A model generated the notes under the pieces. That model saw nothing but the letters and a program-made list of their open reading frames with translations. It was not told the DNA's origin and searched no databases. A stretch of 64,000 bases of DNA from an uncultured Acidobacteriota bacterium (GTDB lineage: Bacteria > Acidobacteriota > Thermoanaerobaculia > Gp7-AA8): the NCBI GenBank assembly GCA_963822445.1, contig CAWGHO010000003.1, forward strand, positions 1,152,001 to 1,216,000, read 5' to 3'. Below, piece by piece: positions 17,190-43,590 of the stretch. Made by a program: the position numbers and the translations under genes. Numbering within the stretch: position 1 is the first letter of the stretch; every line of letters begins with the position of its first letter.

Positions 17190-17259
17190 TCATGACTTAC
17201 GTACAACCGCTGAGTTACTCCATCGTAAATCGGTGCTTCGTCCCCCTTGCGGAGGCTTC

Positions 17260-29700: not shown

Positions 29701-29931
29701 TTCATGCCGAAGCTCGATGGACGGGAGATGTGCCGCCTGTTGAAAGAGGATCCGGCGACGTCGCGCTCGAAGGCGATCATCATGACCGGCCTGTACACCG
29801 ATCGTAAGTACCGCAACGAGGCCCTCGACTACTTCAAGGTCGACGATTACGTGGCCAAGCCGCTGGCCGTCGACGATCTGATCAAACTGTTCAAGAAGCA
29901 TCTGCCCCAGGAAGTCCAGGCGGCGAACTAA
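26734..29931 (+). CDS. Membrane-anchored multi-receiver protein: TM domain, E/R-rich helix, degenerate REC, then 2x (8-Cys module + REC)
   Basis: Four hydrophobic N-terminal segments; two RECs each with VEDD, ILSDAFMPKLDG, MTG and KP; duplicated CxxC..CxC..CxxCxxCxC. Confidence 0.88.
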   Translation: MTQETRRNIFRYGIAIDLVILATGIGMMLPMSPRALVIMYVGAIALTVWKGGWKGGLAALGLSVLALLSMFPSETGAAQLIELTGAAVAAGAIISAAQVPRMPVMQPAAAALRSNVVAFNASVIDEEEIARESLERHRIARTLEKTAAIQIETLRRDAERARREAEEMAVREREAAERAVQEEARRLAEQQRRAAEEEVLRRAEEEHRAAEARERERMERHRVEEDRAVAERNRAAEELAGQLAREREEMERIARAEAERIAEEQRRVEAELTQQLAREREEAQRLLQERLETERRVAEEELRSRLEAEREALRVQMEKQLAAEREAIEREAAARVEAARKAAEEEASRRVAETATKRVPPPAPKHTVVDSLKQTFSGWFQSAEPHRPVPPKRKIATNVAPPRKAATTNGSPARRVTRSQPVQRKPRLLMVERRRATADTAAPKLRQRGMEVGVVERWVDAVDEIFRVRPDAIVLDVEHPEFEKIHYTLTTKYSDMPIVLSGRSSTAAPATSRRAAFVVRPYDVDELVRLAEKASSRPEDLLAEQAAPRVAPKAPVAPASRPIAEQRPQPRPVAVAPVVVSSAPSDTYEVGCFSCRVEFDAVEADWCSCLAKERSLVCTNCLSCFCKAPPAYKEKFWVEAPPRLFERKTSDARRQQNVLPPNPAPADVKRPLVLTVEDDEDIQAIIARVCSNLGYGFIYATNGQDGLEVAREYRPNLILSDAFMPKLDGREMCRILKEDPGFDCKMVVMTGLYTDTKYRSEALKRFHVDDYIAKPVSITDLINLLQRHLEGIAGLPMQEDLHELHRQDIFEEEDELESSLEGEPAEEGIALADLLDTPRTIEVRPRLVAVPKSDSYDVCCFNCQNTFDATRADWCTCVGRDQTVVCTHCGGCFCKSPAAYKERFWMDAPPSLFERKMLGSKRHHGEKANPVPSDVKRPLILLVEDDENVQLIVKTVVTTMGFGFVVGANGQEGLSLAREYNPDLILSDAFMPKLDGREMCRLLKEDPATSRSKAIIMTGLYTDRKYRNEALDYFKVDDYVAKPLAVDDLIKLFKKHLPQEVQAAN

Positions 29932-29973: not shown

Positions 29974-31029
29974 ATGATTGCGACGAAGCTATTAGCGCTT
30001 GCATTGATGGCGGCGCTCAACCCGCTCGTGGCCCGTGCGCCCGAACCGCGCGGCATGACTCCCGAAAATTGCGAAGTCAGCGACGCGCCGCCGATGCCGC
30101 GCACGGTCATCGCTGCCGCGGATCTTCCCGGTGAGGAATCGGCGATGCCCCTTCCGCCGGTCAGGCCGGCCGCGCGCGCGTTGCCGGCATCGACTTCGTC
30201 CGCTCACGTCTCCGAGTTGAAACGCGCGCTGGCCGCGAACGACCGTCCCGCGTTCGACGCGGCGCTGGCGCGCGCGAAGGAAGATGGGGTGGCGACGCGC
30301 GTCTACGAGGACATCGCCCGCATCTGGGACGCGCAGTTCCAGTCGCCGTTCTTCGCCGAGGATTCGGATGCGTATCGCGTGGCGAGCTCGTATCCGGGAT
30401 ACGCGGAGGCGGTGCGCCGTCAGGTGTTCACCGATGCCAGCGGCAGGAAGTACTACCCGGCCGCGGAGTCCCGCGCATTCGTCGCGACGCACGCCGGCGT
30501 GCGATCGCCGACCTCGCGTCGCATCACGACGACGACTGACAGAAAACCTGCTCCGACGCCATCCAGAACGACTCCATCGCGAACGACCACTCGCCGGTCC
30601 ACGCCGGCGACGTCCGGCAAAACAGCAAGCTCAAAACCCGCCGCGAGCAGAAAGAAGGCGCCGCCGAGCTCACCCGATCCCTCGGCACCGCCCAGGATCG
30701 CCGCGCGGGAGCCCGCGCCGGTGGTGGCTTCTCCGGCCGTCGAGAAATCGCCGGCCAGTGCACCACCGGCCGCGGGGATGTTGGACACCGCGGCGCCGTC
30801 CCCGCCAGCCGCCGATCCGATGGCAACCGACACGGACACCAGGCTGACTGACACGGTGGCCGCCGACACGATGACCACGTCCGCCGTCACGGAAACCGGC
30901 ACCACGGCTCCGGTCACGACCACCACCGCCGCCGCGGAACCGGCGAAGGGCCGGCCGATCCTCATCCCGGCGATCCTCATCCTGATCGGCCTGGGCGTGC
31001 TGATCCTCCTTTTCCGCACCAAGGCCTAG
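29974..31029 (+). CDS. Exported Thr/Pro-rich protein with C-terminal TM anchor
   Basis: Signal peptide, low-complexity T/P/A linker, ILIPAILILIGLGVLILLF-RTKA tail. Confidence 0.75.
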   Translation: MIATKLLALALMAALNPLVARAPEPRGMTPENCEVSDAPPMPRTVIAAADLPGEESAMPLPPVRPAARALPASTSSAHVSELKRALAANDRPAFDAALARAKEDGVATRVYEDIARIWDAQFQSPFFAEDSDAYRVASSYPGYAEAVRRQVFTDASGRKYYPAAESRAFVATHAGVRSPTSRRITTTTDRKPAPTPSRTTPSRTTTRRSTPATSGKTASSKPAASRKKAPPSSPDPSAPPRIAAREPAPVVASPAVEKSPASAPPAAGMLDTAAPSPPAADPMATDTDTRLTDTVAADTMTTSAVTETGTTAPVTTTTAAAEPAKGRPILIPAILILIGLGVLILLFRTKA

Positions 31030-31061
31030 AACGAAATCTCCAATCAGGTCAGGGTGTTGAG

Positions 31062-31067
31062 TACAAT
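31062..31067 (+). promoter_or_regulatory. -10 box (TACAAT) of the tRNA gene
   Basis: Near-consensus hexamer 18 nt upstream of the tRNA. Confidence 0.5.
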
Positions 31068-31085
31068 CCGCACTCCTTCCGTCAT

Positions 31086-31162
31086 GCGCCCGTAGCTCAG
31101 CTGGATAGAGCGTTCGCCTCCGGAGCGAAAGGTCGCAGGTTCGAATCCTGCCGGGCGCACCA
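31086..31162 (+). tRNA. tRNA-Arg(CCG)
   Basis: GCGCCCG/CGGGCGC acceptor stem, D-arm AGCTCAGCTGGATAGAGC, anticodon arm TTCGC-CTCCGGA-GCGAA, GGTTCGAATCC, encoded CCA. Confidence 0.97.
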
Positions 31163-31170
31163 AAACAATC

Positions 31171-31449
31171 TCACCGCCGCCGCGTCAACGAAGACTCGAG
31201 CACATCCTCTTTTTCCTCTTCCTCCACTTCACAGCCGAGGATGAAGCCGACCACGGTGAGGAGCGCACTTACGCCGATTGCAGCGAGCGGCCAGCCGGGA
31301 ATCGTGGCGAAGAACGCGATGCCCAGCAGGCCCGCGGCCATGAGGTAGAACGAGGCCTGGATGTGTCGCCGCCAGGTTGCGTGGCAGGCGATGCAAACAG
31401 CGGCGAGCGTGATGGCGCCCATGAACAACTGAAAGATCTTCGGTTCCAT
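31171..31449 (-). CDS. Small membrane protein (3 TM, acidic tail)
   Basis: SD GGAG before the ATG; MEPKIFQLFMGAITLAAV..., three hydrophobic helices. Confidence 0.7.
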   Translation of the reverse strand: MEPKIFQLFMGAITLAAVCIACHATWRRHIQASFYLMAAGLLGIAFFATIPGWPLAAIGVSALLTVVGFILGCEVEEEEKEDVLESSLTRRR

Positions 31450-31602
31450 CTTGGTCTCCAGGCCTCGCTCTCCGGAGTCCGCGGTGATCCACAGGCCGTG
31501 CCCCGGAGTCCGCGTCGAGGTACTTATCCGGAGCGACGTGACGCAGAACACAACCGGCTGAGACTTCGCGCCTGCGATTTGCATCGCATAATCGCCTCGG
31601 AA

Positions 31603-32825
31603 ATGATCAGCCCGGCCCCTACCGCGTCTCTTCAGCACGTGGTGCGCTTGAAAGAGACCGGAGATCTCGATCGCGCCGCGCGTGCAGCCGAAGATGCGCT
31701 TCGGCACGAGAGCGATTCCTCCGATCAACTCGCGTTGCTCCGCGAGCTCGCCGACATCCAGGCGAAGAAAGGGCAGTGGGCTCTCGCGCAGCAGGCCATC
31801 GATCGCGGGCTCGCGCTCGTCGACCGGTTGCGCGACGACGAAGCGCGCGATGCGTTGCTCGAGCGCCGCGCCTGGGTTTTCTTTCGCGAAGGCAAGATCG
31901 CCGAGGCCAAGCGGCTTTGTGAGGAGATGCTCGGGCGGCTGCGCGATTCGAATCGCGTCGGCCTGCTCGCTGACCTCCTCAATACCCGCGGTGGCATCGC
32001 CTGGCAGGAGGGGCGGATCGACGACGCCATGGCCGCCATCGGGGAGAGCATCTCCCTCTACGATCTCGCCCGGAATCAGAACGGCGCCGCCCACAGCCGC
32101 CTGAACCTCGGCATCCTCTGCTTCGCCCGGGGAGACTGGCAGCGCGCGCGCCGCTATCTCGTGCAATCGCGGCGCATCCGCGCCGCGAGCGGGGCAACGT
32201 CCGGCCTGGCCCTCGTGCTCCTGAACCTCGGCCAGGTGGAACTGGCCAGCGGGAAGTTGAGCCTCGCGCGCCGCTACCTCGATGAGAGCGCGGAGCGGAG
32301 CCGTGCCGCCGGCGAGGAGCATGAGGCGCTCTTCGCGGAGATGGCCCTGGCCCAGATCGACCTTTTCGAGAATCGGATCGACGATGCCGCGGCGCGGATC
32401 GGCCAGATCATGCGCGCTCGCCAGGCCCTGACCGGGGATGCGCTGGTTCAGGCCCTCTGGCTGCAGGCGCTCATCGAGTGCCGCCGTGGAAACGTCGACC
32501 ATGCCATCGACCTCGCCAGGGATGCCCGGCGGAAGGCCCACGGGACCGGAATTGCTGAGTCCAGTGCCGATGCCTGCCGGGCTCTTGGCACAATTTACCG
32601 ATCGGCCGGCCGGTTCGACGACGCAAAGGCCCTTCTGGACGAGTCCCTGATGCTGGCGCGGAAGGCCGAGGACCCTTATCGGAGGGCGCTTGCTGATTCG
32701 AGCTCTCGGAAGTGACCGGCGACTCGGTTCGGGCGAGCTCTGCAGTGACCGTTTTCAAGCGGTTGGGGGCCAAATACGACCTCACACGGGCCAAATTTGG
32801 AAAGTTGCTCGCCCCGAAAATGTGA
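31603..32825 (+). CDS. Stand-alone TPR protein; 1-nt deletion near 32697 stops the annotated frame at 32715
   Basis: ERRAWVFFRE, LNTRGG, NLG repeats, DPYRRALA. The shifted frame continues FELSEV...VFKRLGAKYDLTRA to TGA 32823..32825, matching the paralog's VFQHLGAKRDLARA. Confidence 0.8.
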
Positions 32826-32933
32826 TCTACGTCACATTCTGACTCTTTCAGACTTCCCTCACGCTCAGTTGGTAGTAGGTTCGCACTAGGCGGCGGTCGG
32901 AACCGAGACAATACAGAGAAGCTGAGGACTCAC

Positions 32934-35900
32934 ATGACGGGCAAAGTGCGGCAGTCACATTGCGTCGTAATGATGTGGGCAGTAATCGCGGTTGTTCTGA
33001 GCACCACGACGTCGTTTGCAGCAACACCATCCGCGTACGTCGAGCAATCACTGCTCGACCGGCGTGGCAACGTGCCGGTCATCGTGACCGCACGGGACTC
33101 GCGAACCGCGGCCCTGGCGGTTCGCAGCGCCGGCGGGCGCGTCACCAGCGACCTCTGGATCGTCGACGCGGTCGCCGCGAGCGTCCCCGTTCGCTCGATC
33201 GAGCGTCTGGCGAAGAAGCCCGGGATCGTCTCCGTCGTCGAGAACAAGCAGGTTCGCGCGGCGGGCGAGTGGAACGGATGGGTGAGCGATCTGCGCATCC
33301 TGAAGGGCCAGTACTCGGTCGCCGGCACGATGTACGGAGCGCCGACGCACCTTCCCGACGGCGGCTTCGTCCAGGTCGGGACCGAGGGCGAAATCCTGAT
33401 CGTCAACGCCGACGGCTCGGAGAAAGCGCGCGTGAAGCTCACGAACGGCGGCCCGTTCTACGGCTCGGCCGGCGCCGACGCCAGCGGCCGCATCTTCGTC
33501 CCCGCGGTCTACGGCGTGATGTACGGGCTTTCCGCGGACGGAGCGATCCTCTGGGAAAACGCGTCGATGCTGAACACGACGTACTTTTACCCGACGCCCG
33601 TCGTCTCCAGCGACGGCACGGTCATCGTCGTCGCCTACAACGGCGTCGTCTACGGCTTCGACCCCGACAACGGCTCGATCCGCTGGTCGCAGTCGATCCT
33701 CCGCAACAACGCCGAGTACAAGACCTCGCCGATCATTGGACCGGACGACACGATGTACGTCAGCAGCGACAACGGTGAAGTCTTCGCCGTGACGTCGACC
33801 GGCGGTGTGAAGTGGTCGGCCAGCATCAACGGCAACCAGAAGGGGAGCTACGCGGGGGCCACGCCGGTTCTACGCGGCGGCACGCTGTACGTCAACGCCG
33901 GCTCGAAGCTCGTCGGATTCGACGCGGCCATGGGCGCGATCCGCTTTTCCTTCACCGCCGATTCGACGCTGATCGGATCACCGACGCTCGCGCCGGACGG
34001 CGGCGTCATCATCGCCTCGGCGGCCAAGGTCTACGCCCTGACCTCCACCGGACAGATGCAGTGGACGGCGGCGTCCACCGGCAACGTCTTCATCCGCCAG
34101 CCGCTGGTCTCGCCCGACAACACCAGCGTTTACGTCGCCATCGACACCGCCAAAGGCAAGACCGCGCAGGGCATCACCGCCTTCAAGCGCGTTGGTGGCC
34201 AGGCCAAGTGGACCGCACCGTACGCGCTCGGCGTGAACACGCTCATCGCCGATCCAGTCATCGACGCCGACGGCGGCGTGATCTTCACCGCCTCGAACAC
34301 GAGCATGTATCGCCTCAATCCGGACGGTACCGAGTCGCACCGCCTCAAGACCCACACCGCGATCACGCATCTCTCCCAGGCTTCGGACTCGGGCAACATC
34401 GTCATCCGCCTCAGCGCCGCCCCGCAGCTCATGTTCGCCGGCCGCCTGCCGAACGCATGGAACGGCCGCCCCGACGTGGAGAAGGGCTCATCGAGGGGCC
34501 GGTACAAGCTCGTCAATCCGTACACCGTCGACATCGGCGCCGATCAGGTTCACAAGAAGACGGTCACTGGTACGTCGACGTTCCTCCGCGGCAACGGTGT
34601 CACCGTCGCCGTCGTGGACAGCGGCGTGTACTGGGATCCCGACGTGAAGTCGATCCTCGGTCCCCAGCTCCAGCAGCAGTTCGCCGGCCAGGCTGACTAC
34701 GTCGATCCGACCTGCGGCTCCGCGTCGGGCTGCACCCAGCATGGCGACTACGCCTTCTTCGATTTCAACGGCAGCCGCGACACGTACGGCCACGGCACGC
34801 ACGTCGCCGGCACGGTCTCGAACAAGCTCCTCTACGAAGCGCTCGCGCAGGGGCAGAACTCCGACCAGATCTTCATCGGCGTGGCGCCCGACGCGAAGAT
34901 TCTGAGCGTCCGCGTCCTCGGCTCCGACGGCACCGGCTCATACGAGTCGGTGGTCAAGGGCATCCAGTACGTCGTCGACAACAAGGACAAGTACGGCGTG
35001 CGCGTGCTGAACCTCAGCATCAGCGCCTTCGCTACGGTTCCGTACTTCGTCGACCCGCTCAATCGCGCGGTCGAGCGGGCCTGGCAGAAGGGGATCGTCG
35101 TTCTCGCCGCGGCCGGTAACGTCGGCCCGTTCGCGCAGACGATCACCGTGCCCGGCAACGATCCCTACGTCATCACCGTCGGCGCGGTGAACTCGCGGCG
35201 TACCGCGGGCTACTGGAAGGACGACATCGTCGCGGGCTGGTCCGCCACCGGACCGACGCATGACGGATTCGTGAAGCCGGACATCCTCGCGCCGGGCTCG
35301 CAGATCGTGTCGTACATGTACAACGATCCGAGCGGCACGAACACGCCGGCGCTCGTTCGCCAGCATCCCGACTATTCATCCGACCCGACCCTGTTCCGCA
35401 TGAACGGAACGAGCATGGCCACGGGCGTTGCCTCCGGCGTCGTCGCACTGATGCTGCAGGCCAACCCGAGCCTCACGCCCGACCAGGTGAAGTTCCGCCT
35501 CATGGACACCGCGCGTGCATCGCTCGAAGGCGACGAGCCGGCATTCAACGTGTTCCAGCAGGGCGCCGGACGCATCTGGGCACCCGATGCGGTCTTCGCC
35601 ACGTCGACCGCGGCGGCCAATGCGGGTTTGAGTCTCCCCGGCGATCTCGCGCGCGGCTATGAGACCGTCGAGGACCTGGCGTACCACTATCAGGGCCCGG
35701 TGCAGAGACAGCTCAGCGACGGCGGTAACGCGTGGCTCTACTACGTCGACAACGGCGGCGAGATGATCGGCCTCGGCGTATCTGATCTGAACGGCCGCTG
35801 GCTCAGCCGGAGCGATGCTCTCAGTGGGGCCTATGCCTGGGGCGGCGGAACGTCCTTCACCTGGGCCGGCGGTCTGTCCGGCGTCGATCTAGCCAAGAAC

Positions 35901-36218
35901 GGTCATGTCACCTGGAGCAGCATCAAGCTGATCTGGGGCGGCGGCGGGCCAGGTGGCGCCATCAAGCTGATCTGGGGCGGCCTCACCGGCAGCATCAAGT
36001 TGATCTGGGGCGGCTCGGGTCCCTGGGAGGGCGGCCCGGCCTGGGGCAGCATCAAGCTGATCTGGGGCGGCGACGCCGGAACGTACGCGGGCTCGCGCAT
36101 GTCGTGGGTGAGCTCCGTCTCAACGCATCGTCCGACCGGAAGCAACCACGCCTGGGTCGGAGACGATTGGGTCGAGCCACCCGTCAACACCACTCCATCC
36201 CCTGCAGGTACGCAATAG
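32934..36218 (+). CDS. Secreted subtilisin-like S8 peptidase with inserted PQQ/BamB-like beta-propeller and Trp-Gly repeat tail
   Basis: SD GAGGA; signal peptide; prodomain; propeller repeats (G.VY..D..G...W); triad VAVVDSG / HGTHVAG / GTSMAT; oxyanion AAGN; 4x IKLIWGG. Confidence 0.95.
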   Translation: MTGKVRQSHCVVMMWAVIAVVLSTTTSFAATPSAYVEQSLLDRRGNVPVIVTARDSRTAALAVRSAGGRVTSDLWIVDAVAASVPVRSIERLAKKPGIVSVVENKQVRAAGEWNGWVSDLRILKGQYSVAGTMYGAPTHLPDGGFVQVGTEGEILIVNADGSEKARVKLTNGGPFYGSAGADASGRIFVPAVYGVMYGLSADGAILWENASMLNTTYFYPTPVVSSDGTVIVVAYNGVVYGFDPDNGSIRWSQSILRNNAEYKTSPIIGPDDTMYVSSDNGEVFAVTSTGGVKWSASINGNQKGSYAGATPVLRGGTLYVNAGSKLVGFDAAMGAIRFSFTADSTLIGSPTLAPDGGVIIASAAKVYALTSTGQMQWTAASTGNVFIRQPLVSPDNTSVYVAIDTAKGKTAQGITAFKRVGGQAKWTAPYALGVNTLIADPVIDADGGVIFTASNTSMYRLNPDGTESHRLKTHTAITHLSQASDSGNIVIRLSAAPQLMFAGRLPNAWNGRPDVEKGSSRGRYKLVNPYTVDIGADQVHKKTVTGTSTFLRGNGVTVAVVDSGVYWDPDVKSILGPQLQQQFAGQADYVDPTCGSASGCTQHGDYAFFDFNGSRDTYGHGTHVAGTVSNKLLYEALAQGQNSDQIFIGVAPDAKILSVRVLGSDGTGSYESVVKGIQYVVDNKDKYGVRVLNLSISAFATVPYFVDPLNRAVERAWQKGIVVLAAAGNVGPFAQTITVPGNDPYVITVGAVNSRRTAGYWKDDIVAGWSATGPTHDGFVKPDILAPGSQIVSYMYNDPSGTNTPALVRQHPDYSSDPTLFRMNGTSMATGVASGVVALMLQANPSLTPDQVKFRLMDTARASLEGDEPAFNVFQQGAGRIWAPDAVFATSTAAANAGLSLPGDLARGYETVEDLAYHYQGPVQRQLSDGGNAWLYYVDNGGEMIGLGVSDLNGRWLSRSDALSGAYAWGGGTSFTWAGGLSGVDLAKNGHVTWSSIKLIWGGGGPGGAIKLIWGGLTGSIKLIWGGSGPWEGGPAWGSIKLIWGGDAGTYAGSRMSWVSSVSTHRPTGSNHAWVGDDWVEPPVNTTPSPAGTQ
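35922..36071 (+). repeat. Four 21-nt intragenic repeats encoding IKLIWGG
   Basis: atcaagYtgatctggggcggc at 35922, 35961, 35994 and 36051. Confidence 0.95.
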
Positions 36219-36241
36219 AGAGGTAGGCATCGCAAGGAGAC

Positions 36242-37525
36242 ATGCAGATGACTACCGAGGCAACGATTCAAGCGGTTCGGCGATTGAAGGCCCTCGGCCG
36301 GTACGTCGACGCCGAGGGGGAGCTGGAACGGGCTCTCGACCAGAACGGAAACCTGCAGACGCTCGAGCGGGTCTCGCTTCTGTACGAGCTCGCCGATGTC
36401 TGCTCGAAGGTCGGCGCGTGGCAACGCGGCCAGACCGTGATCGACGAGGCACTGGAGCTTCTGGGCCCCCACGCGGAAGTGCAGCACTCCGATCTCTGGA
36501 TCGCGCTCATGGAGCGGCGGGCCTGGATCTACTTCCGCCAGACCCGTCTGCGCGACGCGCGGGCGACCGCGCTGAAGCTTCTGGCGAAACTGAACAACCA
36601 GGACTCGAGCTCGGCGCACCTCGCCAGCATCTACAACACCCTCGGCGGCGTCGCGTACAGCGAAGGCCGTGCAGAAGAAGGGATGCGCGCCATCGAGCGG
36701 AGCATCGAGCACTACGAAAAGGCCGGCGACAGGTCGGGGCTGGCCACGGCGCGCATGAACTTCGGCGTGCTTCTTCTGACGGAAGGGAAGTGGCCTGAAG
36801 CCGCGGAGCAATTCGCGGAATCGGACCGCGTTCGGCGCGATTTGCCCGATCAAACCGGCCGGTCGTCGAATCTCTTGAACCTCGGTCTGCTCGAGCTTTC
36901 TCTGGGAGAGCATGACAAAGCCCGCCAGCATCTCGACGAGAGTCTGGCCATGAGCGAGGAGACCGGCGAATGCCACGTCGCCTCGCACGCGCAACTCGGT
37001 CTCGCGTATCTGGCGCTCATCGAGTCACGCGTCGATGATGCCGACAGGTATGTCAACGCGGCGATCGCCCGCGACGACCGGATGTGCGGTGACGATCGCG
37101 TTCAGGCGACCTGGGTGCGCGCTCTCATCGAGTGCGAGCGCGGATCGACCGATCGGGCCGTGAAACTGGCCAGCGAAGCGCGAAAGATCGCGCAGGAGTC
37201 CTCGCTCGTCGATTGGGAAGCCGATTGCTGCCGGGCCATCGGCATCGCGCACTTGCGTTCGAAGGAGTACGACACGGCGCACAACTTCTTCGCCGAGTCC
37301 GCGTCGCTCGCGCAACGAGCGTCCGATCCGTACCGCCGCGCGCTGGCGCTGCTCGAGATCAGCACCCTGTGCCACGAAGCGTCATGCAGCGACGCTTCGG
37401 CCGCCGAGCGCTGGTCCGCGCAGGGCCGGACGAGCGTCGACGAGGCCGCGAAGGTGTTCCAGCATCTCGGCGCGAAGCGCGATCTGGCGCGCGCCGAGTC
37501 GGTGCGCGCGAATTTCGCGGCGTAG
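36242..37525 (+). CDS. Stand-alone TPR protein, paralog of 31603..32825 and of the TPR domain of 37614..41072
   Basis: SD AAGGAG; ERRAWIYFRQ, YNTLGG, MNFG, NLLNLG, QATWVRALIEC, DPYRRALALLE. Confidence 0.88.
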   Translation: MQMTTEATIQAVRRLKALGRYVDAEGELERALDQNGNLQTLERVSLLYELADVCSKVGAWQRGQTVIDEALELLGPHAEVQHSDLWIALMERRAWIYFRQTRLRDARATALKLLAKLNNQDSSSAHLASIYNTLGGVAYSEGRAEEGMRAIERSIEHYEKAGDRSGLATARMNFGVLLLTEGKWPEAAEQFAESDRVRRDLPDQTGRSSNLLNLGLLELSLGEHDKARQHLDESLAMSEETGECHVASHAQLGLAYLALIESRVDDADRYVNAAIARDDRMCGDDRVQATWVRALIECERGSTDRAVKLASEARKIAQESSLVDWEADCCRAIGIAHLRSKEYDTAHNFFAESASLAQRASDPYRRALALLEISTLCHEASCSDASAAERWSAQGRTSVDEAAKVFQHLGAKRDLARAESVRANFAA

Positions 37526-37613
37526 TGGAGTGCGGCGGCTCTGCCGCCGCTTTCCGACGCCGGAGGCGCGCTCCGCGCGCAGCCAAAGCGGCGGCAGAGC
37601 CGCCGCACTCCAC
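37525..37613. repeat. REPIN-like 29-bp perfect inverted repeat; may act as a bidirectional terminator
   Basis: gtggagtgcggcggctctgccgccgcttt (37525..37553) and its exact reverse complement (37585..37613), between convergent stops. Confidence 0.85.
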
Positions 37614-40600
37614 CTACAACATCGCCGTGGCGCGCTGCGCATCATGCGCGGCGCCGAGCCGCGCCAACGTCCGCGCGGCTTCCTCGATCAACTCATTGCA
37701 TTTGCGCGCGTTTCCCAACTCCAGTAGCGCCAGCGCTTCGCGATACGGATCGCTCGCTTTCCTCGCGGCCTCGATCGATCTCTGAAACGCGATCTCCGCG
37801 GCCGCGCCATCGCCGCGACGCGCATGCAACGATCCGAGGACGCGCATGGAGTCCGCCTCCGAATCTCTCACGCCGAATTCACAGGCGGTCCGGCAGGCTT
37901 CCTCGGCCATCACGATCGCGTCATCGACCGACCTCTCCGCCGCGATCAATGCCGAGACCCACTGGATGTCGATGCGATGGTCATTCGTCAGCGCGCGGTC
38001 GTACGCGGTCAGGCTCTGCAGCGCCGTCTCGGCATCGCCGATCCGCTTCTCCAGGATCGCCACCTGCGCCAGGCCGATCAGCGCTGCCGCAGCGACCATG
38101 TCTTCGCCGAGATGCACGCTCACGGAAAGACTGGCCTCGCAATCGCGGCGAGCCGCGGCATGCTCGCCCATGGCCATGTGCAGTGCGGCGAGGTTCAGCA
38201 GGTTCTCCGCGCGGCCGACGACGTAGCCGATCTCGCGGCGGATGAAATCCGATCGCTCGTAGCTCTCCGCCGCCTCCTTCCACCGGCCCTGGCCGTAGTA
38301 CAGGATGCCCAGGTTCATGTGCGCGTTGGCCTTGCCGAAGAGGTAGCCGATCTTGTGGTAGATCGCGAGGCTCTTGCGGACGTACTCCGCGGCCTGCTCC
38401 AGACGTCCGTACTTCCAGAGCACGCCGCCAAGCGTGTTGTAGAGATTCGCGAGCAGCACCGGCTCAGCGGCGTTGTCGGACTCGACTTCGCGCGCGAGCT
38501 CGTCGGCGATCAGAAGCGATTCGTCGAGGCGCTGCTGACGGAAGCGCACCCAGGCCAGGCGCTCGCGGATGGTCCGCCGCACCGCGGTTGATTCGGTTCC
38601 GGCGAATTCGGCGATGGTCAGCGACGCCATGTCGAGATGCTGCGCCGCTTCTTCGAGCATGCCCTCGCGCGCCTCGACGTCGGCAAGCTCCACGAGCAGA
38701 TCGATCAGCAGGCGGAACGGCGGACGCTCGAGCTGCGACGCGCGATTCGAAACGTCGATCAGCGCGTCCTCGAGAATCCTGCGCGTCTCGCTGAGGCGGC
38801 CGAGGAACTTCAGTGAGCGCCCGTGCAACAGCTCGAGGCGGTTGTACTCGTCGCGATCGAACTCCGGGAGGATCCGGACGATGTCGAGCGCGCGGCGGTA
38901 GTGATCCGCGGCAACGTCGTTCGCATGGCGGCGCGCGGAGCGTTCCGCCGCGCCGAGCAGATACGGCACCGCCTTCGCGGCTTCGCCACTTTCGGAGTAG
39001 TGGTACGCGAGCACCTCGTCGCGCTCGTTCGCCGGCCAGAAGCTGCCTTTTTCCACTGCTTCGGCGACCTCGCGATGCATTTCCTGGCGATCGCGTTTGA
39101 GCAGCGTGCTGTGAATCGCTTCCTGAATGAGCGCGTGGCGGAACGCGTATCCCTTCTCCAGGCCGAACGCCTCTTCCTCGAGGAACTCGCGGGCCTCGAG
39201 CTCCTCGAGAGCATCGACGGTGTCGATCGGTGCCCCGGCCAGGAGCTGCTGGAGCAGACGCACGGGGAAGGACCGGCCGAGGATTGCCGCGCGTTGCAGC
39301 ACGCGGCGAAGCTCGCGGGGGAGGCAATCGAAGCGCGTGACCATCAGCCCGCGCAGGCTCGACGGCACGTCATGGAGCACAGCCGCTGCCTCGCCGGTCA
39401 CCCGCCACTCGCCGGCGGTTCCGACGAGGCCTCCGCGATCGAGGAGCATCCGCACCAGCTCCTCGACGTAGAGCGGATTGCCTTCGGCGCGATTGATGAT
39501 CTTCTGCCGCAGCGCGACTGCCTCGACCGAATCGCCCGGAACGAGCTGCTTCACGAGACGCCGCGAATCGGTTGCGCCAAGCGGCTCGAGATCGATCTCG
39601 GAGAAGTGCTCGCCATGCGCGGCGGCCATCTCCACCAGCGGCCGGATCGTGGTGGCGCGCTCGAGATGGCGGGAGATCACGATCATCATCAGCGGCTGAT
39701 CGCCGGCGGACTGGATGAAGTACTGGAGGAAATCGCGCGACGCGGAATCGACCCAGTGCAGATCGTCGAACAGGAGCACGGCCGGTTTGTTGCGCGTGGC
39801 GGCGATGATGATCCGTCGCAGCGCGGCGTGGGTCTGCTCCTGGAGCATGGCCTCGTCGAGAAGGCGCAGTCGGTGTTCGGAAACCTCGTCGCTCTGCGGA
39901 AGGCCGAGGACGTTGAGAACGTACGGGGTCACCTCGGCTTCGGGAAGGTCGTGCGCAGCGATGAATGCCGCTGCTGCCTGTGACTGCGCGGCCGCGGGAT
40001 CGGCCGCGTCGATGCCGAGGATGGCGCGGAGGAGATCGGCGGCCAGGGTGAGCGGGCGGGAACGGCTCAAGGCAATGCAGCGCGCGCCGTAAATCGAGAC
40101 CGCGTCGTTGTCGAGCGTGCGGATGAACTCATGCACGAGCCGGGTCTTGCCGACGCCGGCCTCGCCGCACACGAACGCGATCTGCGTGACGCCGGTCGCG
40201 CGCATGCGTCGCAGCGATTCCTGGAGGAGGGCCGTGGCCGACTCGCGTCCGATGAGGGGGATGGTCATCCCCGGGACGCCGCGTTGCGGCCCGACGTGCG
40301 GCTGCACGCCGGCAACGCGGTAGGCCGTGACCGGGCGCGAGATCCCTTTCAGCGAAAGCGGCGGGACGGTCTCGTAGCGGAAATTCGCCGAAGTGCGGTT
40401 GTATGTTTCCTCGCTGACCAGCACGGAGCCCGGCTCCGCCGCGGTCTGCAGCCGCGAGGCGAGATTCACCGTGTCGCCGATGACCGTGTATTCCGTGTGC
40501 GCGGCGCTGCCGATCTTTCCGGCGATCACCTCACCGGTGTGCACGCCGATGCGGATGCGGAACTGAAAGCCGTGTTGCGCGGCGAGGCGCTCGCGCATCG

Positions 40601-41072
40601 GCCGGATCACGCGCTGCATGTCCCAGGCGGCGCGGACGGCGCGCTCGGCGTCGTTCTCATGGGCGGCGGGAGCTCCGAAGAGCGCCATCAGGCCGTCGCC
40701 CGTGAATTTGTCGATCGTGCCTTCGTATTCGTTGACCACGTCGGCGAGAAGCTTGAGGGCCTCGTCGATGAACGAGTAGACGTCTTCGCTGTCGAGGCGG
40801 CTGGAGGTGGCGGTGAAGTCGGTGACGTCGGCGAACAGCACCGTGACCTCGCGCCGCTCTGTCGACGGCCCCTCGGCCGGATCTTCCGCGCGGATGGTGA
40901 AAGAGTGCGCGCCCTCGCGCGTCAGGGCCGCGCCGCAGGAAGAGCAGAAACGGCTGCCGGCGGCATTGGAAACGCCGCAGCGGGCGCAATCGGTACGGAC
41001 GGGAGATCCGCACCTCCGGCAATCCGCCGAATCAGCGGACATCTGTGAACCGCAATTCGGGCAGAAACGCAC
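37614..41072 (-). CDS. Double zinc ribbon - class III adenylate cyclase - STAND/AAA ATPase - TPR protein
   Basis: 4x CxxC; LFADVTDFT, DKFTGDG, RIGVHTG, YTVIGDTVNLASRL; Walker A GEAGVGKT, Walker B LLFDDLHW; GNPLYVEE; TPRs. Confidence 0.95.
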   Translation of the reverse strand: MRFCPNCGSQMSADSADCRRCGSPVRTDCARCGVSNAAGSRFCSSCGAALTREGAHSFTIRAEDPAEGPSTERREVTVLFADVTDFTATSSRLDSEDVYSFIDEALKLLADVVNEYEGTIDKFTGDGLMALFGAPAAHENDAERAVRAAWDMQRVIRPMRERLAAQHGFQFRIRIGVHTGEVIAGKIGSAAHTEYTVIGDTVNLASRLQTAAEPGSVLVSEETYNRTSANFRYETVPPLSLKGISRPVTAYRVAGVQPHVGPQRGVPGMTIPLIGRESATALLQESLRRMRATGVTQIAFVCGEAGVGKTRLVHEFIRTLDNDAVSIYGARCIALSRSRPLTLAADLLRAILGIDAADPAAAQSQAAAAFIAAHDLPEAEVTPYVLNVLGLPQSDEVSEHRLRLLDEAMLQEQTHAALRRIIIAATRNKPAVLLFDDLHWVDSASRDFLQYFIQSAGDQPLMMIVISRHLERATTIRPLVEMAAAHGEHFSEIDLEPLGATDSRRLVKQLVPGDSVEAVALRQKIINRAEGNPLYVEELVRMLLDRGGLVGTAGEWRVTGEAAAVLHDVPSSLRGLMVTRFDCLPRELRRVLQRAAILGRSFPVRLLQQLLAGAPIDTVDALEELEAREFLEEEAFGLEKGYAFRHALIQEAIHSTLLKRDRQEMHREVAEAVEKGSFWPANERDEVLAYHYSESGEAAKAVPYLLGAAERSARRHANDVAADHYRRALDIVRILPEFDRDEYNRLELLHGRSLKFLGRLSETRRILEDALIDVSNRASQLERPPFRLLIDLLVELADVEAREGMLEEAAQHLDMASLTIAEFAGTESTAVRRTIRERLAWVRFRQQRLDESLLIADELAREVESDNAAEPVLLANLYNTLGGVLWKYGRLEQAAEYVRKSLAIYHKIGYLFGKANAHMNLGILYYGQGRWKEAAESYERSDFIRREIGYVVGRAENLLNLAALHMAMGEHAAARRDCEASLSVSVHLGEDMVAAAALIGLAQVAILEKRIGDAETALQSLTAYDRALTNDHRIDIQWVSALIAAERSVDDAIVMAEEACRTACEFGVRDSEADSMRVLGSLHARRGDGAAAEIAFQRSIEAARKASDPYREALALLELGNARKCNELIEEAARTLARLGAAHDAQRATAML

Positions 41073-41206
41073 TTTTGACGGGCTCCCGGGAACGTGATGA
41101 CCGATATTGCCACTACTGGTTTTGGAATCGGTATGCGAAAAACAGACCCAGCAGCAGCAAGTTGCCGGCCGACCGCCCGGCCTGAAAGGTGCAAGCGCGC
41201 TCGGCG

Positions 41207-42766
41207 GTGAGTATTCGGCGGTTCTTCATCGCTTTCGCGCTGATTGCGCTGGCTTGTGGACGCGAGCAGCAGCGCGCGCCCACGCCGGCACCGGCCCCGG
41301 TGCAACCGCGCGACGGCGGCACGCTCACCCGCCGGCTGGAGAACGAGGTCACCACTCTCAACTACCTCCTCCACACGACGGACTACGAGCGGAACGTTCT
41401 CGCCTATCTGTACGACCCGCTCATCGATCTCGACGAGAACCTGCAACCGATTCCCGGCACGGCGGCGAGTTGGACGGTCTCTCCCGACCGGCTGACCTAC
41501 ACGCTGAAGCTCGATCCGCGGTCGACGTTCAGCGACGGCAAGCCCGTTCGCGCCAGCGACATCGTCTTCACCATCCGCAAGATCATCGAGGCCGAGTCGA
41601 TGCAGTACTCGTCGTTCTTCACCGGGCTCGATCTGAACCGGTTGCGCGCGCTCGACGACAGGACCGTCGAAGTGGTCTTCACCGAGCCGCACGTGGCCCG
41701 CTGGTACGCCTTCAACATCGGCGTGTTACCGGAGCACGTTTACGGCAAGGGCGATTTCAAGAACGACTTCAACGACATGGCCGTCGGCAACGGGCCCTAC
41801 GTGCTCGCGCGCCGCCAGGCGGAACAGCCGATCACGCTCGAGCGGCGTGCCGACTACTGGCGCGAGAAGCCGCACATTCAGCGCATCGTCTTCAAGGTCA
41901 TCGGCGACACCACCGTGGCCTGGAACGCGATGAAGCGGGGCGACATCGACGAGATGCGGCTCAAGACCGACTTCTGGGCTCGCGAGAAGAACGCGCCGAA
42001 CGTCGAGTTCCACGACGTCTGGGCCCTTCAGTACAACTGCATCGCCTGGAACAACCGCGATCCCATCCTGCGCGACCCGCGCGTCCGCCGCGCGCTGGCC
42101 ATGGCCTTCGACACGAAGCAGGTCATCGACACGATGTACCACGGCCAGGCCCGCGCCATCAGCGGCCCGTTCACGCCCGATCAGTGGGCATACAACGCCG
42201 CCGTTCCGCCGGTGAAGTTCGATCTCGCCGGCGCGCGGAAGCTGCTCGACGAGGCGGGATGGAAAGACAAGAAGCTCGCACTGACGATGATCCTTCCCGC
42301 CGGCAACACCGTCGGCCTCGAGCAGGGGCAGATCCTGCAGGATGCCCTGGGGAAGATCGGCGTGACGCTGAGCGTGCAGGCCCTCGAAGGGGCGGCGTTC
42401 TTCGAGCACATCATGCGCGGCAACTACCAGTCGGCCTTTTTCGCCTGGTCTCTCGATCCCGAGCCCGATCTCTATCCGCTGTTCCACTCGACCCAGATCC
42501 CGCCGGCCGGGATGAACGTGATCGGCTACTCGAATCCCGAAGTGGATCGGGCCATCGACGAGGCCCGCCGCACGTTCGACCTTCCCACGCGGCGAGCCGC
42601 CTACCACCGCCTTCATGTCATGCTCGCCGCCGATCAGCCGTATCTCTGGACGCTGCAGCTCGCCCAGAAGTGGGCCGTGAACAAGAGAGTGAAGAACGTG
42701 AAAGTGTCGAAGGGCTTCGGACTGTTCATTTGGCATCCCGGGCCGAAGCAGTGGTGGCTTCAATAG
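41207..42766 (+). CDS. ABC transporter substrate-binding lipoprotein, family 5 (OppA/DppA-like)
   Basis: Lipobox ALIALAC; LYDPLI, SWTVSPD..YTLKL, FSDG.PV.ASD, VGNGPY, DPRVRRAL. No permease or ATPase genes in the window. Confidence 0.92.
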   Translation: MSIRRFFIAFALIALACGREQQRAPTPAPAPVQPRDGGTLTRRLENEVTTLNYLLHTTDYERNVLAYLYDPLIDLDENLQPIPGTAASWTVSPDRLTYTLKLDPRSTFSDGKPVRASDIVFTIRKIIEAESMQYSSFFTGLDLNRLRALDDRTVEVVFTEPHVARWYAFNIGVLPEHVYGKGDFKNDFNDMAVGNGPYVLARRQAEQPITLERRADYWREKPHIQRIVFKVIGDTTVAWNAMKRGDIDEMRLKTDFWAREKNAPNVEFHDVWALQYNCIAWNNRDPILRDPRVRRALAMAFDTKQVIDTMYHGQARAISGPFTPDQWAYNAAVPPVKFDLAGARKLLDEAGWKDKKLALTMILPAGNTVGLEQGQILQDALGKIGVTLSVQALEGAAFFEHIMRGNYQSAFFAWSLDPEPDLYPLFHSTQIPPAGMNVIGYSNPEVDRAIDEARRTFDLPTRRAAYHRLHVMLAADQPYLWTLQLAQKWAVNKRVKNVKVSKGFGLFIWHPGPKQWWLQ

Positions 42767-43590
42767 AGCATTCGCTGCATCTGCCCGACGGCGAGCGCGG
42801 TCATCTGCTGGTCATGCTGCACGGCTGCGTGCAGCCGGCGAGCGAGCTCGCGATCGCCACGCGCATGAACGCCGCCGCCGCGGCGAAGGGCTGGGCGGTG
42901 TTGTGGCCCCAGCAGTCGCAGGCCGCGCATGAATTGCGCTGCTGGAACTGGTACCTGCCCGACCATCAGAACCGCGGTGCCGGCGAGCCGGCGATGCTCG
43001 CTGAGCTCATTCGCGATGTGCGCGCCGAGCACGGTCTCGATCGCGTGTTTCTCGGCGGCATTTCCGCCGGCGCGGCGATGAGCGCGGTGCTCGCGGCGAA
43101 CTATCCCGAGATGATCACGGCCATCGCGATGCACTCCGGAATCGCATTCGGTGCGGCGTCGACCGTGGCCGGCGCGCTCACGGCCATGCGCACCGGCGAT
43201 CTGGATCCGCTCGCGCTCGGAGTCCAGGCGAATCAGGCGATGGGCGAGCGAGCACGCGTGATTCCGACGCTCGTGCTGCACGGCCGCCAGGATGCAGCGC
43301 TCCATCCGCGCAACGGGACGAATCTCGCCGGGCAGTGGGCCGTGGCAAACGCAATCGCCCTCGGCAAACCGGCGGCGATTCCGTCATCGCGAGAAACGAC
43401 TCATCGCGAGGAAGGCCGTTACGACGCGACGATCGTCACCTACGACGACGTCGACGTCGAGGAATGGCGCATCGCCCCCCTCGGACATGCCTGGTCGGGC
43501 GGATCAGCCGAGGCGACGTATACCGATCCGAAGGGTCCCGACGCGACGAGGGCCGTGATCGACTTCTTCAGCCGTTTTTCCCGACCTTGA
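42751..43590 (+). CDS. PHB depolymerase-family esterase (alpha/beta hydrolase)
   Basis: LVMLHGC.Q, CWNW, GISAGAAM, HG..D, GHAWSGG, GPDA; only the 3' third of ORF 41107..43590 is coding. Confidence 0.88.
   Translation: MVASIEHSLHLPDGERGHLLVMLHGCVQPASELAIATRMNAAAAAKGWAVLWPQQSQAAHELRCWNWYLPDHQNRGAGEPAMLAELIRDVRAEHGLDRVFLGGISAGAAMSAVLAANYPEMITAIAMHSGIAFGAASTVAGALTAMRTGDLDPLALGVQANQAMGERARVIPTLVLHGRQDAALHPRNGTNLAGQWAVANAIALGKPAAIPSSRETTHREEGRYDATIVTYDDVDVEEWRIAPLGHAWSGGSAEATYTDPKGPDATRAVIDFFSRFSRP

Follow-up and report, generated by a model that had tools for sequence, protein, structure and literature searches.

The subject of this report is an exported protease with a repetitive tail and the multidomain sensor encoded beside it. 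Both were found in a 64,000-nucleotide stretch of DNA (hereafter, the window) from an uncultured Acidobacteriota bacterium (contig CAWGHO010000003.1, positions 1,152,001 to 1,216,000). Between positions 31603 and 42766 of the window lie, in order, a gene for a protein made only of tetratricopeptide repeats (TPR), an S8 peptidase (subtilase) with a Gly/Trp-rich tail, a second TPR-only protein, a convergent sensor joining a class III cyclase to a STAND NTPase and a TPR domain, and a divergent family-5 solute-binding protein; on this arrangement the open reading frame (ORF) listing and Pfam agree with the original prediction. The association between the tailed, exported subtilase and its dedicated sensor is real; it is also specific and old, and there is every reason to think, short of certainty, that the two form one functional unit. 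The region is best read as a laterally spread signalling module, the constant parts of which are these two proteins. The flexible tail of identical Trp-containing units is the obvious candidate for the signal, and peptides derived from it are a plausible, though far from assured, ligand of the sensors. When considered together, these observations suggest, but do not prove, peptide signalling of a kind undescribed outside the Firmicutes.

Pairing of tailed proteases with sensors in three phyla

The S8 gene occupies positions 32934-36218 of the plus strand (1094 aa) and the sensor gene positions 37614-41072 of the minus strand (1152 aa). An alignment of 12 C-terminal ends (A1), covering the region behind the S8 domain and the tail, recovered 161 relatives from a collection of species genomes, while a search of genome contigs with the single protein found none. 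The best 80 of the 161 relatives were kept and gave 78 loci, carried mostly by Chloroflexota (Caldilineaceae, Anaerolineae, Chloroflexales, Promineifilaceae), with some Opitutales and three Acidobacteriota; nearly all carriers are metagenome-assembled genomes, cultured Chloroflexales are represented by L027 and L032, and runs of masked N interrupt some tails (L030, L067, L082). Neighbours were taken as stop-to-stop ORFs, searched with the proteins of the window and clustered all-against-all, and distances between these raw frames, which are not gene calls, are approximate. Counts refer to the 75 loci with a focal S8 gene among L018-L093, L079 having none, and L016 and L017 being repeats of the two congeneric loci described below (G021 and G008, respectively).

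Within 1.5 kb of the protease, a sensor of the TPR clade was found at 26 of the 75 loci and a polytopic-membrane sensor at 17, leaving 32 with neither, 17 of them flanked on one side by less than 2.5 kb. When only the 37 loci having 2.5 kb or more on each side are counted, the corresponding numbers are 16, 6 and 15, and at seven of these 15 a sensor lies 1.7-4.2 kb away. No other partner family recurs in more than seven loci, if shadow ORFs opposite the S8 and sensor genes are set aside, and both sensor types stand together (within 1.5-1.7 kb) in a single locus, L046. Linkage of S8 genes bearing a WG tail with TPR/cyclase genes, on whose presence the original prediction had staked itself, is conserved across three phyla. 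The partner most often kept is the TPR domain of the sensor, which in the window is encoded at 37617-38855 of the minus strand (residues 740-1152). The TPR-clade neighbours mostly share the zinc-ribbon/cyclase/AAA_16/TPR architecture of the window's sensor, which also stands beside the S8 gene in a Chloroflexales locus (L027), and are TPR-only in Opitutales and in L064. The second partner consists of a polytopic-membrane domain of about 260 residues (some seven helices, judged by eye) without a match in Pfam or NCBIfam, fused to either HisKA/HATPase or HD-GYP domains, and is usually encoded directly downstream of S8; Chloroflexota examples are L045:5530-7047, L041:4903-6366, L050:10234-11808 and L062:10762-12294, with about 17 further loci.

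The specificity of the pairing is also apparent at the scale of whole genomes. Five carrier genomes of 4-8 Mb hold eight tailed S8 genes, six of which have a sensor of the clade alongside, and in three of the five the single tailed S8 gene neighbours the single best sensor match. On a quick tree of the S8 domain (74 rows, midpoint root, support from the Shimodaira-Hasegawa-like approximate likelihood-ratio test only), the label for the TPR partner changes at least ten times and that for the membrane sensor at least five times. On the same tree, S8 genes from Acidobacteriota and Opitutales branch within those of Chloroflexota, which suggests lateral spread of the module. The presence of a second, independent sensor class beside the same proteases strengthens the case for the tailed protease as a signalling input: since two unrelated classes of sensor were recruited to it, one embedded in the membrane and the other a cytoplasmic TPR protein of the type that binds peptides, the simplest explanation is that the protease supplies the signal.

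Closer to the window, the tail region is present in three of 35 genomes of the genus, the window's own included (the tally covers G002 and G041, both without a match). One of the other two (G008) encodes on a single strand a TPR protein, an S8 protease 51% identical to that of the window and, directly behind it, a binding protein 59% identical, with no cyclase gene on its 15-kb contig; the other (G021) shows, within a contig of 2.1 kb, a TPR gene behind the end of an S8 gene.

Several loci add observations of their own. In three of them (L022:3-7010, L034:2-6928, L035:3-6947) the tailed S8 gene has an open frame of about 2300 aa upstream; the frame that was scanned (L022) has two domains each of the cyclase and AAA_16 types, which points to a tandem pair of sensors, either fused or divided by a stop that was missed. 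A tandem pair of cyclase/STAND/TPR sensors of the clade, flanked by histidine kinases and with no tailed S8 gene near, is found at about 9471-16888 of L105 (G053:C7:6000-25900). Finally, the tailed S8 gene of Chloroflexales is preceded by one for a protein some 390 aa long, which combines a GAF domain with an MshE-like motif for binding cyclic di-GMP (c-di-GMP) (L027:6241-7413, L032:6111-7343, L053:6240-7400, L028:2762-3991, L026:1220-2407; families were checked on L027, the others being its cluster mates); this protein could possibly act as a second-messenger receptor of the module.

The protease tail and its repeated units

From a structural point of view, the S8 protein comprises a leader, a propeptide-like region, a BamB/PQQ-like propeller (residues 152-323 and beyond; PQQ_2, E 3e-23), the S8 domain (Peptidase_S8, PF00082, residues 553-866, E 1e-47), a small beta-rich domain, the repeat tail and a terminal motif. 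The Asp, His and Ser of the catalytic triad, which had been described as intact, are unchanged in all 21 aligned members of the family, in keeping with its assignment to peptidase family S8. The hydrophobic leader, judged by eye, ends in SFA/A, so that the enzyme is presumably exported, as the other N-termini of the family that were inspected, which also carry export leaders, would be. The tail proper (35868-36137, plus strand; residues ~979-1068) is made of degenerate W-x-G-G heptads and of four perfect IKLIWGG units, just as the original prediction had it, at 35922-35942 (residues 997-1003), 35961-35981 (1010-1016), 35994-36014 (1021-1027) and 36051-36071 (1040-1046), all on the plus strand and located by a repeat search. 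At the DNA level three of these 21-nt units are identical and one, the third in order, differs by a single synonymous change, CTG to TTG. Tandem Repeats Finder reported nothing at 35500-36300, because the units are interspersed with spacers. The tail is closed by a conserved motif, W-V-G-D-D-W-V-E-P-P (36153-36182, plus strand), one Trp of which is invariant in both alignments (12/12 in A1 and 21/21 in A2); across the wider family the motif reads T/S-x-W-V/I-[GDE]-[DE].

AlphaFold2, run on a shallow alignment of 21 S8-plus-tail sequences, gave predicted local distance difference test (pLDDT) values mostly of 70-97 in the catalytic and small beta-rich domains, about 60 at the terminal W-V-G-D-D-W motif, where short strands are predicted, and 21-34 at model residues 450-539, which correspond to residues 979-1068 of the protein, that is, to the tail. 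No repeat fold was predicted there, and the tail appears flexible in the sense of having no confident fold, low pLDDT alone being no proof of disorder. The best Foldseek matches of the catalytic part are Tk-SP, Vpr and subtilisins such as subtilisin BPN' (E 2e-23 and weaker), and a sequence search of the PDB with residues 860-1094 returned nothing meaningful (best E 0.59). A left-handed beta-helix was suggested for the tail by a feature search of the ESM Atlas with residues 900-1094 (score 0.92), the nearest clusters being hypothetical proteins of which 15-28% have Hexapep; this candidate was rejected because periods of 7 and 8 occur, the core position is Trp and AlphaFold2 predicts no fold.

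Searched with residues 860-1094, a set of 5.8 billion proteins yielded 18 proteins at E <= 0.001 out of 5541 candidates, and among 1.84 billion representatives phmmer gave 55 matches at E <= 0.001, 34 at <= 1e-10 and three at <= 1e-30, numbers that give family size only, without genomic context. Each protein repeats a unit of its own, for example IKLIWGG, ARLIWSG, ARMTWGG, GTYAWSG, GRSWAG, GYETWAG or GMATWAG, with a period of 6, 7 or 8; in the two congeneric relatives, ARLIWSG occurs eight times (G008) and ARMTWGG/ARLTWGG about ten times (G021), while several degenerate heptads and a terminal W-V/I-G-D-D-W motif hold their position in all three tails. Units among proteins of the wider family include VRLIWGG, LRMTWGG, QMAWAGG, LPTWSGG, TYAWSGG, RYSWGG and GYYYLGGV, followed by T/S-x-W-V-[DEG]. 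Chloroflexales tails lack tight tandems and contain four identical S-R/K-R/K-L-V/I-W-V cores between divergent spacers of 25-35 residues, with V/I-E/D-P/A/T preceding three of the four cores.

The constancy of the unit within a protein can be examined at the DNA level. In 64 arrays, defined by period and not by identity, 474 of 615 units equal the modal unit, and the pooled proportion of synonymous differences (pS) is 0.51 against 0.079 for nonsynonymous ones (pN). In many arrays every identical peptide unit has a different DNA sequence, as in L045, where all eight copies of one unit differ. Since identical units diverge at synonymous sites, their identity is kept by selection and not by slippage alone; the four units of the window, being nearly identical in DNA, were homogenised recently.

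Not all members follow the single-unit pattern. In L051:3588-8711, L021:8516-11116 and L024:7412-11377 two units alternate (GAFIWS/GAFAWA) or a handful of similar units (LPTWSG, IPTWSG, VPTWSG, MALWSG) replaces the single one. Many Chloroflexota members (L020, L021, L031, L036, L038, L040, L055, L060) show an F/Y-L/I-P-A/L/I-V/L-x(3-5) motif at the C-terminus of the S8 protein, and others end in a hydrophobic helix with basic residues, both of which may serve for sorting or anchoring. A genome belonging to the window's class holds a tandem array of about ten S8 paralogs (G035:C190:276028-293305) that are 40-48% identical to the window's catalytic domain.

The sensor, its companions and the genomic setting

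The sensor begins with a double zinc ribbon (residues 3-47), followed by the cyclase domain (Guanylate_cyc, 72-251; PF00211, E 9e-29), an AAA_16 domain (272-464, E 1e-21) and the TPR region, which starts near residue 740 and is matched by TPR_12 and related models from about residue 875. With an AAA_16 NTPase, a repeat sensor domain and an N-terminal effector it has the architecture of a MalT/LAL-like STAND sensor, to judge from its domain matches. Membership in the class III cyclases is supported by the retention, in at least 90% of 23 sensors, of an Asp pair, Lys/Asp and Asn/Arg, which we take to be the metal-binding, substrate-defining and transition-state residues, respectively; the conserved Lys and Asp fit a cyclase that probably makes cyclic AMP (cAMP). 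The TOMM kinase/cyclase fusion model TIGR03903 matches the sensor over profile positions 272-931 only, at 296.7 bits against a cut-off of 705.75, and no kinase domain is present in the sensor, which places it outside that family.

On either side of the protease gene lie TPR1 (31603-32715, plus strand, 370 aa), with Pfam matches to TPR_12, TPR_2 and, weakly, TPR_MalT only, and TPR2 (36242-37525, plus strand, 427 aa), which starts 23 nt past the S8 stop codon. Neither shows a leader by eye, and both are accordingly read from their N-termini as probably cytoplasmic. As originally proposed, the TPR domain of the sensor is a colinear paralog of both: the three regions align over about 365 residues at 38% (TPR1 with TPR2), 36% and 35% (TPR1 with the sensor) identity, with E values of 2e-64, 1e-64 and 3e-47. 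These are the only three strong copies of the clade in a genome of about 6 Mb, and all lie at this locus, the next match having E 1e-12. The acidobacterial TPR-only proteins, including TPR1, form a clade (support 100/99), and the stand-alone TPR genes of Opitutales group with the fused form (100/100); on these trees, stand-alone copies arose independently in Acidobacteriota and Opitutales. A search of TPR1, TPR2 and the sensor for a helix-turn-helix (HTH) or Rap N-domain found neither, and the same is true of the TPR-only proteins from G008, L064 and Opitutales.

The fifth gene (41189-42766, plus strand) is divergent from the sensor gene and encodes a family-5 solute-binding protein of the OppA/DppA/NikA class (SBP_bac_5, PF00496, 282 bits), which its leader (LIALAC, by eye) suggests to be a lipoprotein. 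It falls below every NCBIfam equivalog cut-off (Opp4A, 175 bits against 650; NikA, 141 against 393). Paralogs at 46-56% identity occur in all 35 genomes of the genus (G002 and G041 included), at least one in each and two to three in most, and the closest ones in the two other S8 carriers reach 66% and 59%; three other genomes hold paralogs whose flanking genes do not recur in the window. When 18 paralogs from 10 chosen genomes were placed in a tree, the S8-linked proteins joined neither the clade of permease-linked paralogs (100/100) nor that of general orphans (100/99), and did not form a single strict clade themselves. The binding protein was originally described as an orphan and as part of the circuit. 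The first point holds, no ABC permease being encoded in the window, while a permease pair adjoins a 47% identical paralog at C3:1.70 Mb of the same genome, so that import is feasible. As to the second, the gene is adjacent in both assembled acidobacterial loci, the third being on fragmented contigs, but no transporter is conserved in the loci of other lineages.

The five genes are separated by 218, 23, 88 and 116 nt (ORF listing), and no small secreted-propeptide gene was found between them among ORFs of at least 80 aa. A scan of 31000-43000 gave no promoter-like sites and three terminator-like sites, a number below the shuffled level. No RNA dataset matching 32934-37525 was found; one rhizosphere metagenome DNA run shares a small part of the words of that interval. 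The flanks encode unrelated signalling and hydrolase functions (a double-receiver protein, a polyhydroxybutyrate (PHB)-depolymerase-type esterase, an AI-2E family transporter and a GAF/PAS hybrid kinase), with no radical-SAM or other peptide-modifying gene. Further away in the window are a bacterial Roc-COR (ROCO) GTPase (17233-19809, plus strand, 858 aa), in a dip of G+C content to 0.54 at 18-20 kb, and a 1065-aa protein (26734-29931, plus strand) with a long Glu/Arg-rich region and two receiver domains, of which Pfam recognises Response_reg only; ahead of each receiver this protein has a near-duplicate Cys-rich module (C-x2-C ... C-x-C ... C-x2-C-x2-C-x-C).

Possible roles of the tail and comparison with known systems

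From the gene content, the conservation and specificity of the pairing, the selection on the units and the predicted lack of fold in the tail, we infer a course of cleavage, import, binding and activation. The protease would be exported and its disordered tail cut, by the same or a neighbouring molecule, into short Trp-containing peptides, which here would contain IKLIW. The binding protein would capture these peptides and an Opp-type permease encoded elsewhere would import them; a peptide bound to the TPR domain would then free the STAND switch and thereby start synthesis of a cyclic nucleoside monophosphate (cNMP), probably cAMP, while the free TPR proteins may buffer or tune the peptide pool. 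The binding protein would be a lineage-specific importer component in Acidobacteriota, and in other lineages the peptide would be sensed extracellularly by the polytopic-membrane protein with its histidine kinase or HD-GYP output. In its full form, this amounts to a self-processing pheromone polyprotein, in which an exported enzyme carries, cuts and releases copies of a lineage-specific Trp peptide for two interchangeable types of receptor, a proposal that we hold tentatively.

It is nevertheless important to stress that a number of observations weigh against this reading. A covariation of repeat unit and TPR, originally suggested as a check at the groove residues, did not appear at the level of whole domains: in a partial Mantel test on 28 protease-sensor pairs, which is crude in that it uses whole-domain identity and kin that are not independent, the correlation of unit with TPR given S8 was r = -0.08 (p = 0.78), while the unit follows its own S8 domain (r = 0.31, p = 0.001) and the S8 and TPR distances correlate at r = 0.83. 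This outcome counts against a simple lock-and-key picture; a complex prediction for the sensor TPR domain (alignment A3) with the tail (positions 126-196 of A1), which scored 0.01 against a mark of 0.32 without controls, is no evidence either way. The selection signature is not specific to released peptides, because L033 contributes two Pro/Thr linkers to the 64 arrays, with pN/pS values (0.074/0.386 and 0.053/0.474) similar to those of the Trp arrays. With regard to the tail itself, the Pro found just before several of the Chloroflexales cores would make a poor subtilisin site; some members have Ig-like domains or a membrane anchor beyond the tail, which is therefore an internal linker in those members; orthologs share the degenerate framework heptads and the terminal W-V-x-D motif, the kind of conservation expected of a structural element; and irregular tails exist, for example in L038. 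With regard to the partners, 15 of the 37 well-flanked loci have no sensor within 1.5 kb and eight have none within about 4 kb, orphan sensors exist (two on G053:C7, for instance), no conserved transporter is found among the neighbours outside Acidobacteriota, although a cytoplasmic TPR domain would need import, and the binding protein has only weak matches beyond that phylum, in L033 and L046.

Several of these points are what would be expected if the tail were a structural or adhesive part of a protease at the cell surface, a Trp/Gly-rich spacer or an element binding matrix or wall, and the sensors only controlled expression of the protease or responded to another cue, nutrients or products of general proteolysis for instance. 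The anchors and extra domains beyond the tail, the conserved framework and terminal motif, the irregular tails, the pN/pS pattern shared with linker arrays and the missing unit-TPR covariation all suit this explanation, as does the general tendency of regulators to adjoin the genes they control. It is the main rival of the signalling reading, though we consider it somewhat less likely than that reading, since the same tailed protease has repeatedly recruited two unrelated sensor classes, stand-alone TPR copies without an output domain arose twice, AlphaFold2 gives no confident fold, and the unit is strictly kept within a protein while its length and chemistry vary between proteins, which is hard to reconcile with a generic spacer.

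A further possibility is that the ligand is the intact tail and not a fragment of it. The TPR proteins would then bind the tail before the pre-protein is exported, serving as a chaperone or as a checkpoint of export through which the cyclase learns the protease load, and membrane sensors would contact the tail of the enzyme bound at the surface. No importer would be needed, which fits the absence of a conserved transporter, and the TPR-only genes indeed flank the S8 gene on the same strand, 218 and 23 nt away. However, identical multi-copy units would be left unexplained, the module-specific binding protein of Acidobacteriota would have no role and covariation was not found, all of which makes this an improbable account. 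Less probable again is that secreted peptides with a bioactivity other than signalling, for example antimicrobial or surface-active ones, come from the tail as their multi-core precursor, with the sensors serving regulation or self-protection. Repeated identical cores between more variable spacers, the analogy with the enzyme-fused core peptides of burpitides and borosins and the match of the sensor to the TOMM kinase/cyclase model, at 297 bits yet under the cut-off of 706, would be in line with such a role; against it stand cores of merely 6-8 residues and the lack of any modifying enzyme, exporter or immunity gene conserved nearby. Specifically, a survey of the genes around 76 loci and of the window flanks turned up no conserved family of modifying enzymes, which sets the module apart from multi-core peptides that are made by the ribosome and modified after translation (RiPPs). 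An anti-phage or conflict system, with a STAND/TPR sensor, a Pycsar-like cyclase and a protease effector, is very improbable: the PADLOC scan gave generic cyclase, subtilase and TPR matches only (PycC models up to 103 bits, as expected for any class III cyclase, and the 'subtilase' model at 110 bits for S8), and although STAND/TPR proteins are common in defence according to PMC7159879, the protease has an export leader, neither the flanks in the window nor the conserved neighbours include an effector that is activated by cNMP or binds it, and what takes the sensor's place elsewhere are histidine kinases and HD-GYP proteins of an ordinary kind.

If the peptide-signalling reading is correct, peptide communication reaches the Chloroflexota, the Opitutales of the Verrucomicrobiota and the Acidobacteriota, phyla abundant in soil and water, for none of which we know of a described peptide communication system. 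The precursor would be part of its own processing enzyme, and peptide sensing would be tied to cAMP, c-di-GMP and two-component outputs, with a cyclic nucleotide in place of a transcription-factor output. STAND/TPR cyclases, a large class of orphan sensors, would gain a concrete and synthesisable candidate ligand of 6-8 residues whose sequence the genome supplies. A structural role of the tail would still leave three things that, to our knowledge, have not been described: the association with two kinds of sensor, a membrane sensor domain without a name and a unit identity kept strictly within each protein. In agreement with the claim that the circuit is new, no description of the pairing was found by full-text literature searches or in passages of PMC7159879, the supplementary tables of which lay outside the search and might list it.

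Among known systems, the closest in outline are the RRNPP systems (Rap-Phr, NprR-NprX, PlcR-PapR), in which the peptide matures by extracellular proteolysis and is then imported through an Opp-type transporter. The likeness lies in a cytoplasmic TPR receptor there, or TPR sensor here, beside the source of a secreted peptide, a candidate one in the present case. The RRNPP peptide comes from a small propeptide gene and its receptor has an HTH or phosphatase domain, whereas here the candidate peptide is the multi-copy tail of a protease and the output is a STAND-gated cyclase; moreover, the hosts are Firmicutes in one case and Acidobacteriota, Chloroflexota and Verrucomicrobiota in the other, and the TPR regions of the window match generic TPR and TPR_MalT models only. 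The module is not a member of RRNPP, having neither an HTH/Rap domain nor a small propeptide gene. In the consulted parts of two accounts (PMC10075063, PMC9765709), adjacent propeptide and receptor genes are described in Firmicutes and peptide signalling via cytoplasmic TPR receptors is treated as a speciality of that phylum.

The STAND regulators of the MalT/LAL type resemble the sensor in the order of an effector domain, an AAA_16 NTPase and a MalT-like TPR region. In that family the switch is an oligomerisation released by ligand. Here, in contrast, the effector is a zinc ribbon with a class III cyclase, the candidate ligand is a peptide of the neighbouring secreted protease, and stand-alone copies of the sensor domain accompany the window's sensor. 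The polytopic histidine kinases of Agr/Com systems, where the gene of the pheromone precursor lies beside that of a membrane receptor, find their parallel in the 17 of 75 related loci with a tailed protease followed by a polytopic-membrane sensor; unlike those systems, the tailed-protease loci have no AgrB- or ComAB-type processing exporter, the membrane domain is without a match in Pfam or NCBIfam, and the window itself has no membrane sensor.

Finally, polyprotein precursors such as yeast alpha-factor, processed by Kex2, as well as burpitides and borosins, contain several identical short cores in one chain, which at times also includes the enzyme acting on those cores. Burpitides and fungal RiPPs are presented as enzyme-fused or multi-core precursors in the parts consulted of PMC12186524, PMC11253845 and PMC9233826. 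The tailed subtilase differs from these in that the fused enzyme is a protease, that no modifying enzyme is linked to it and that its proposed product would be a signal for the sensor encoded alongside.

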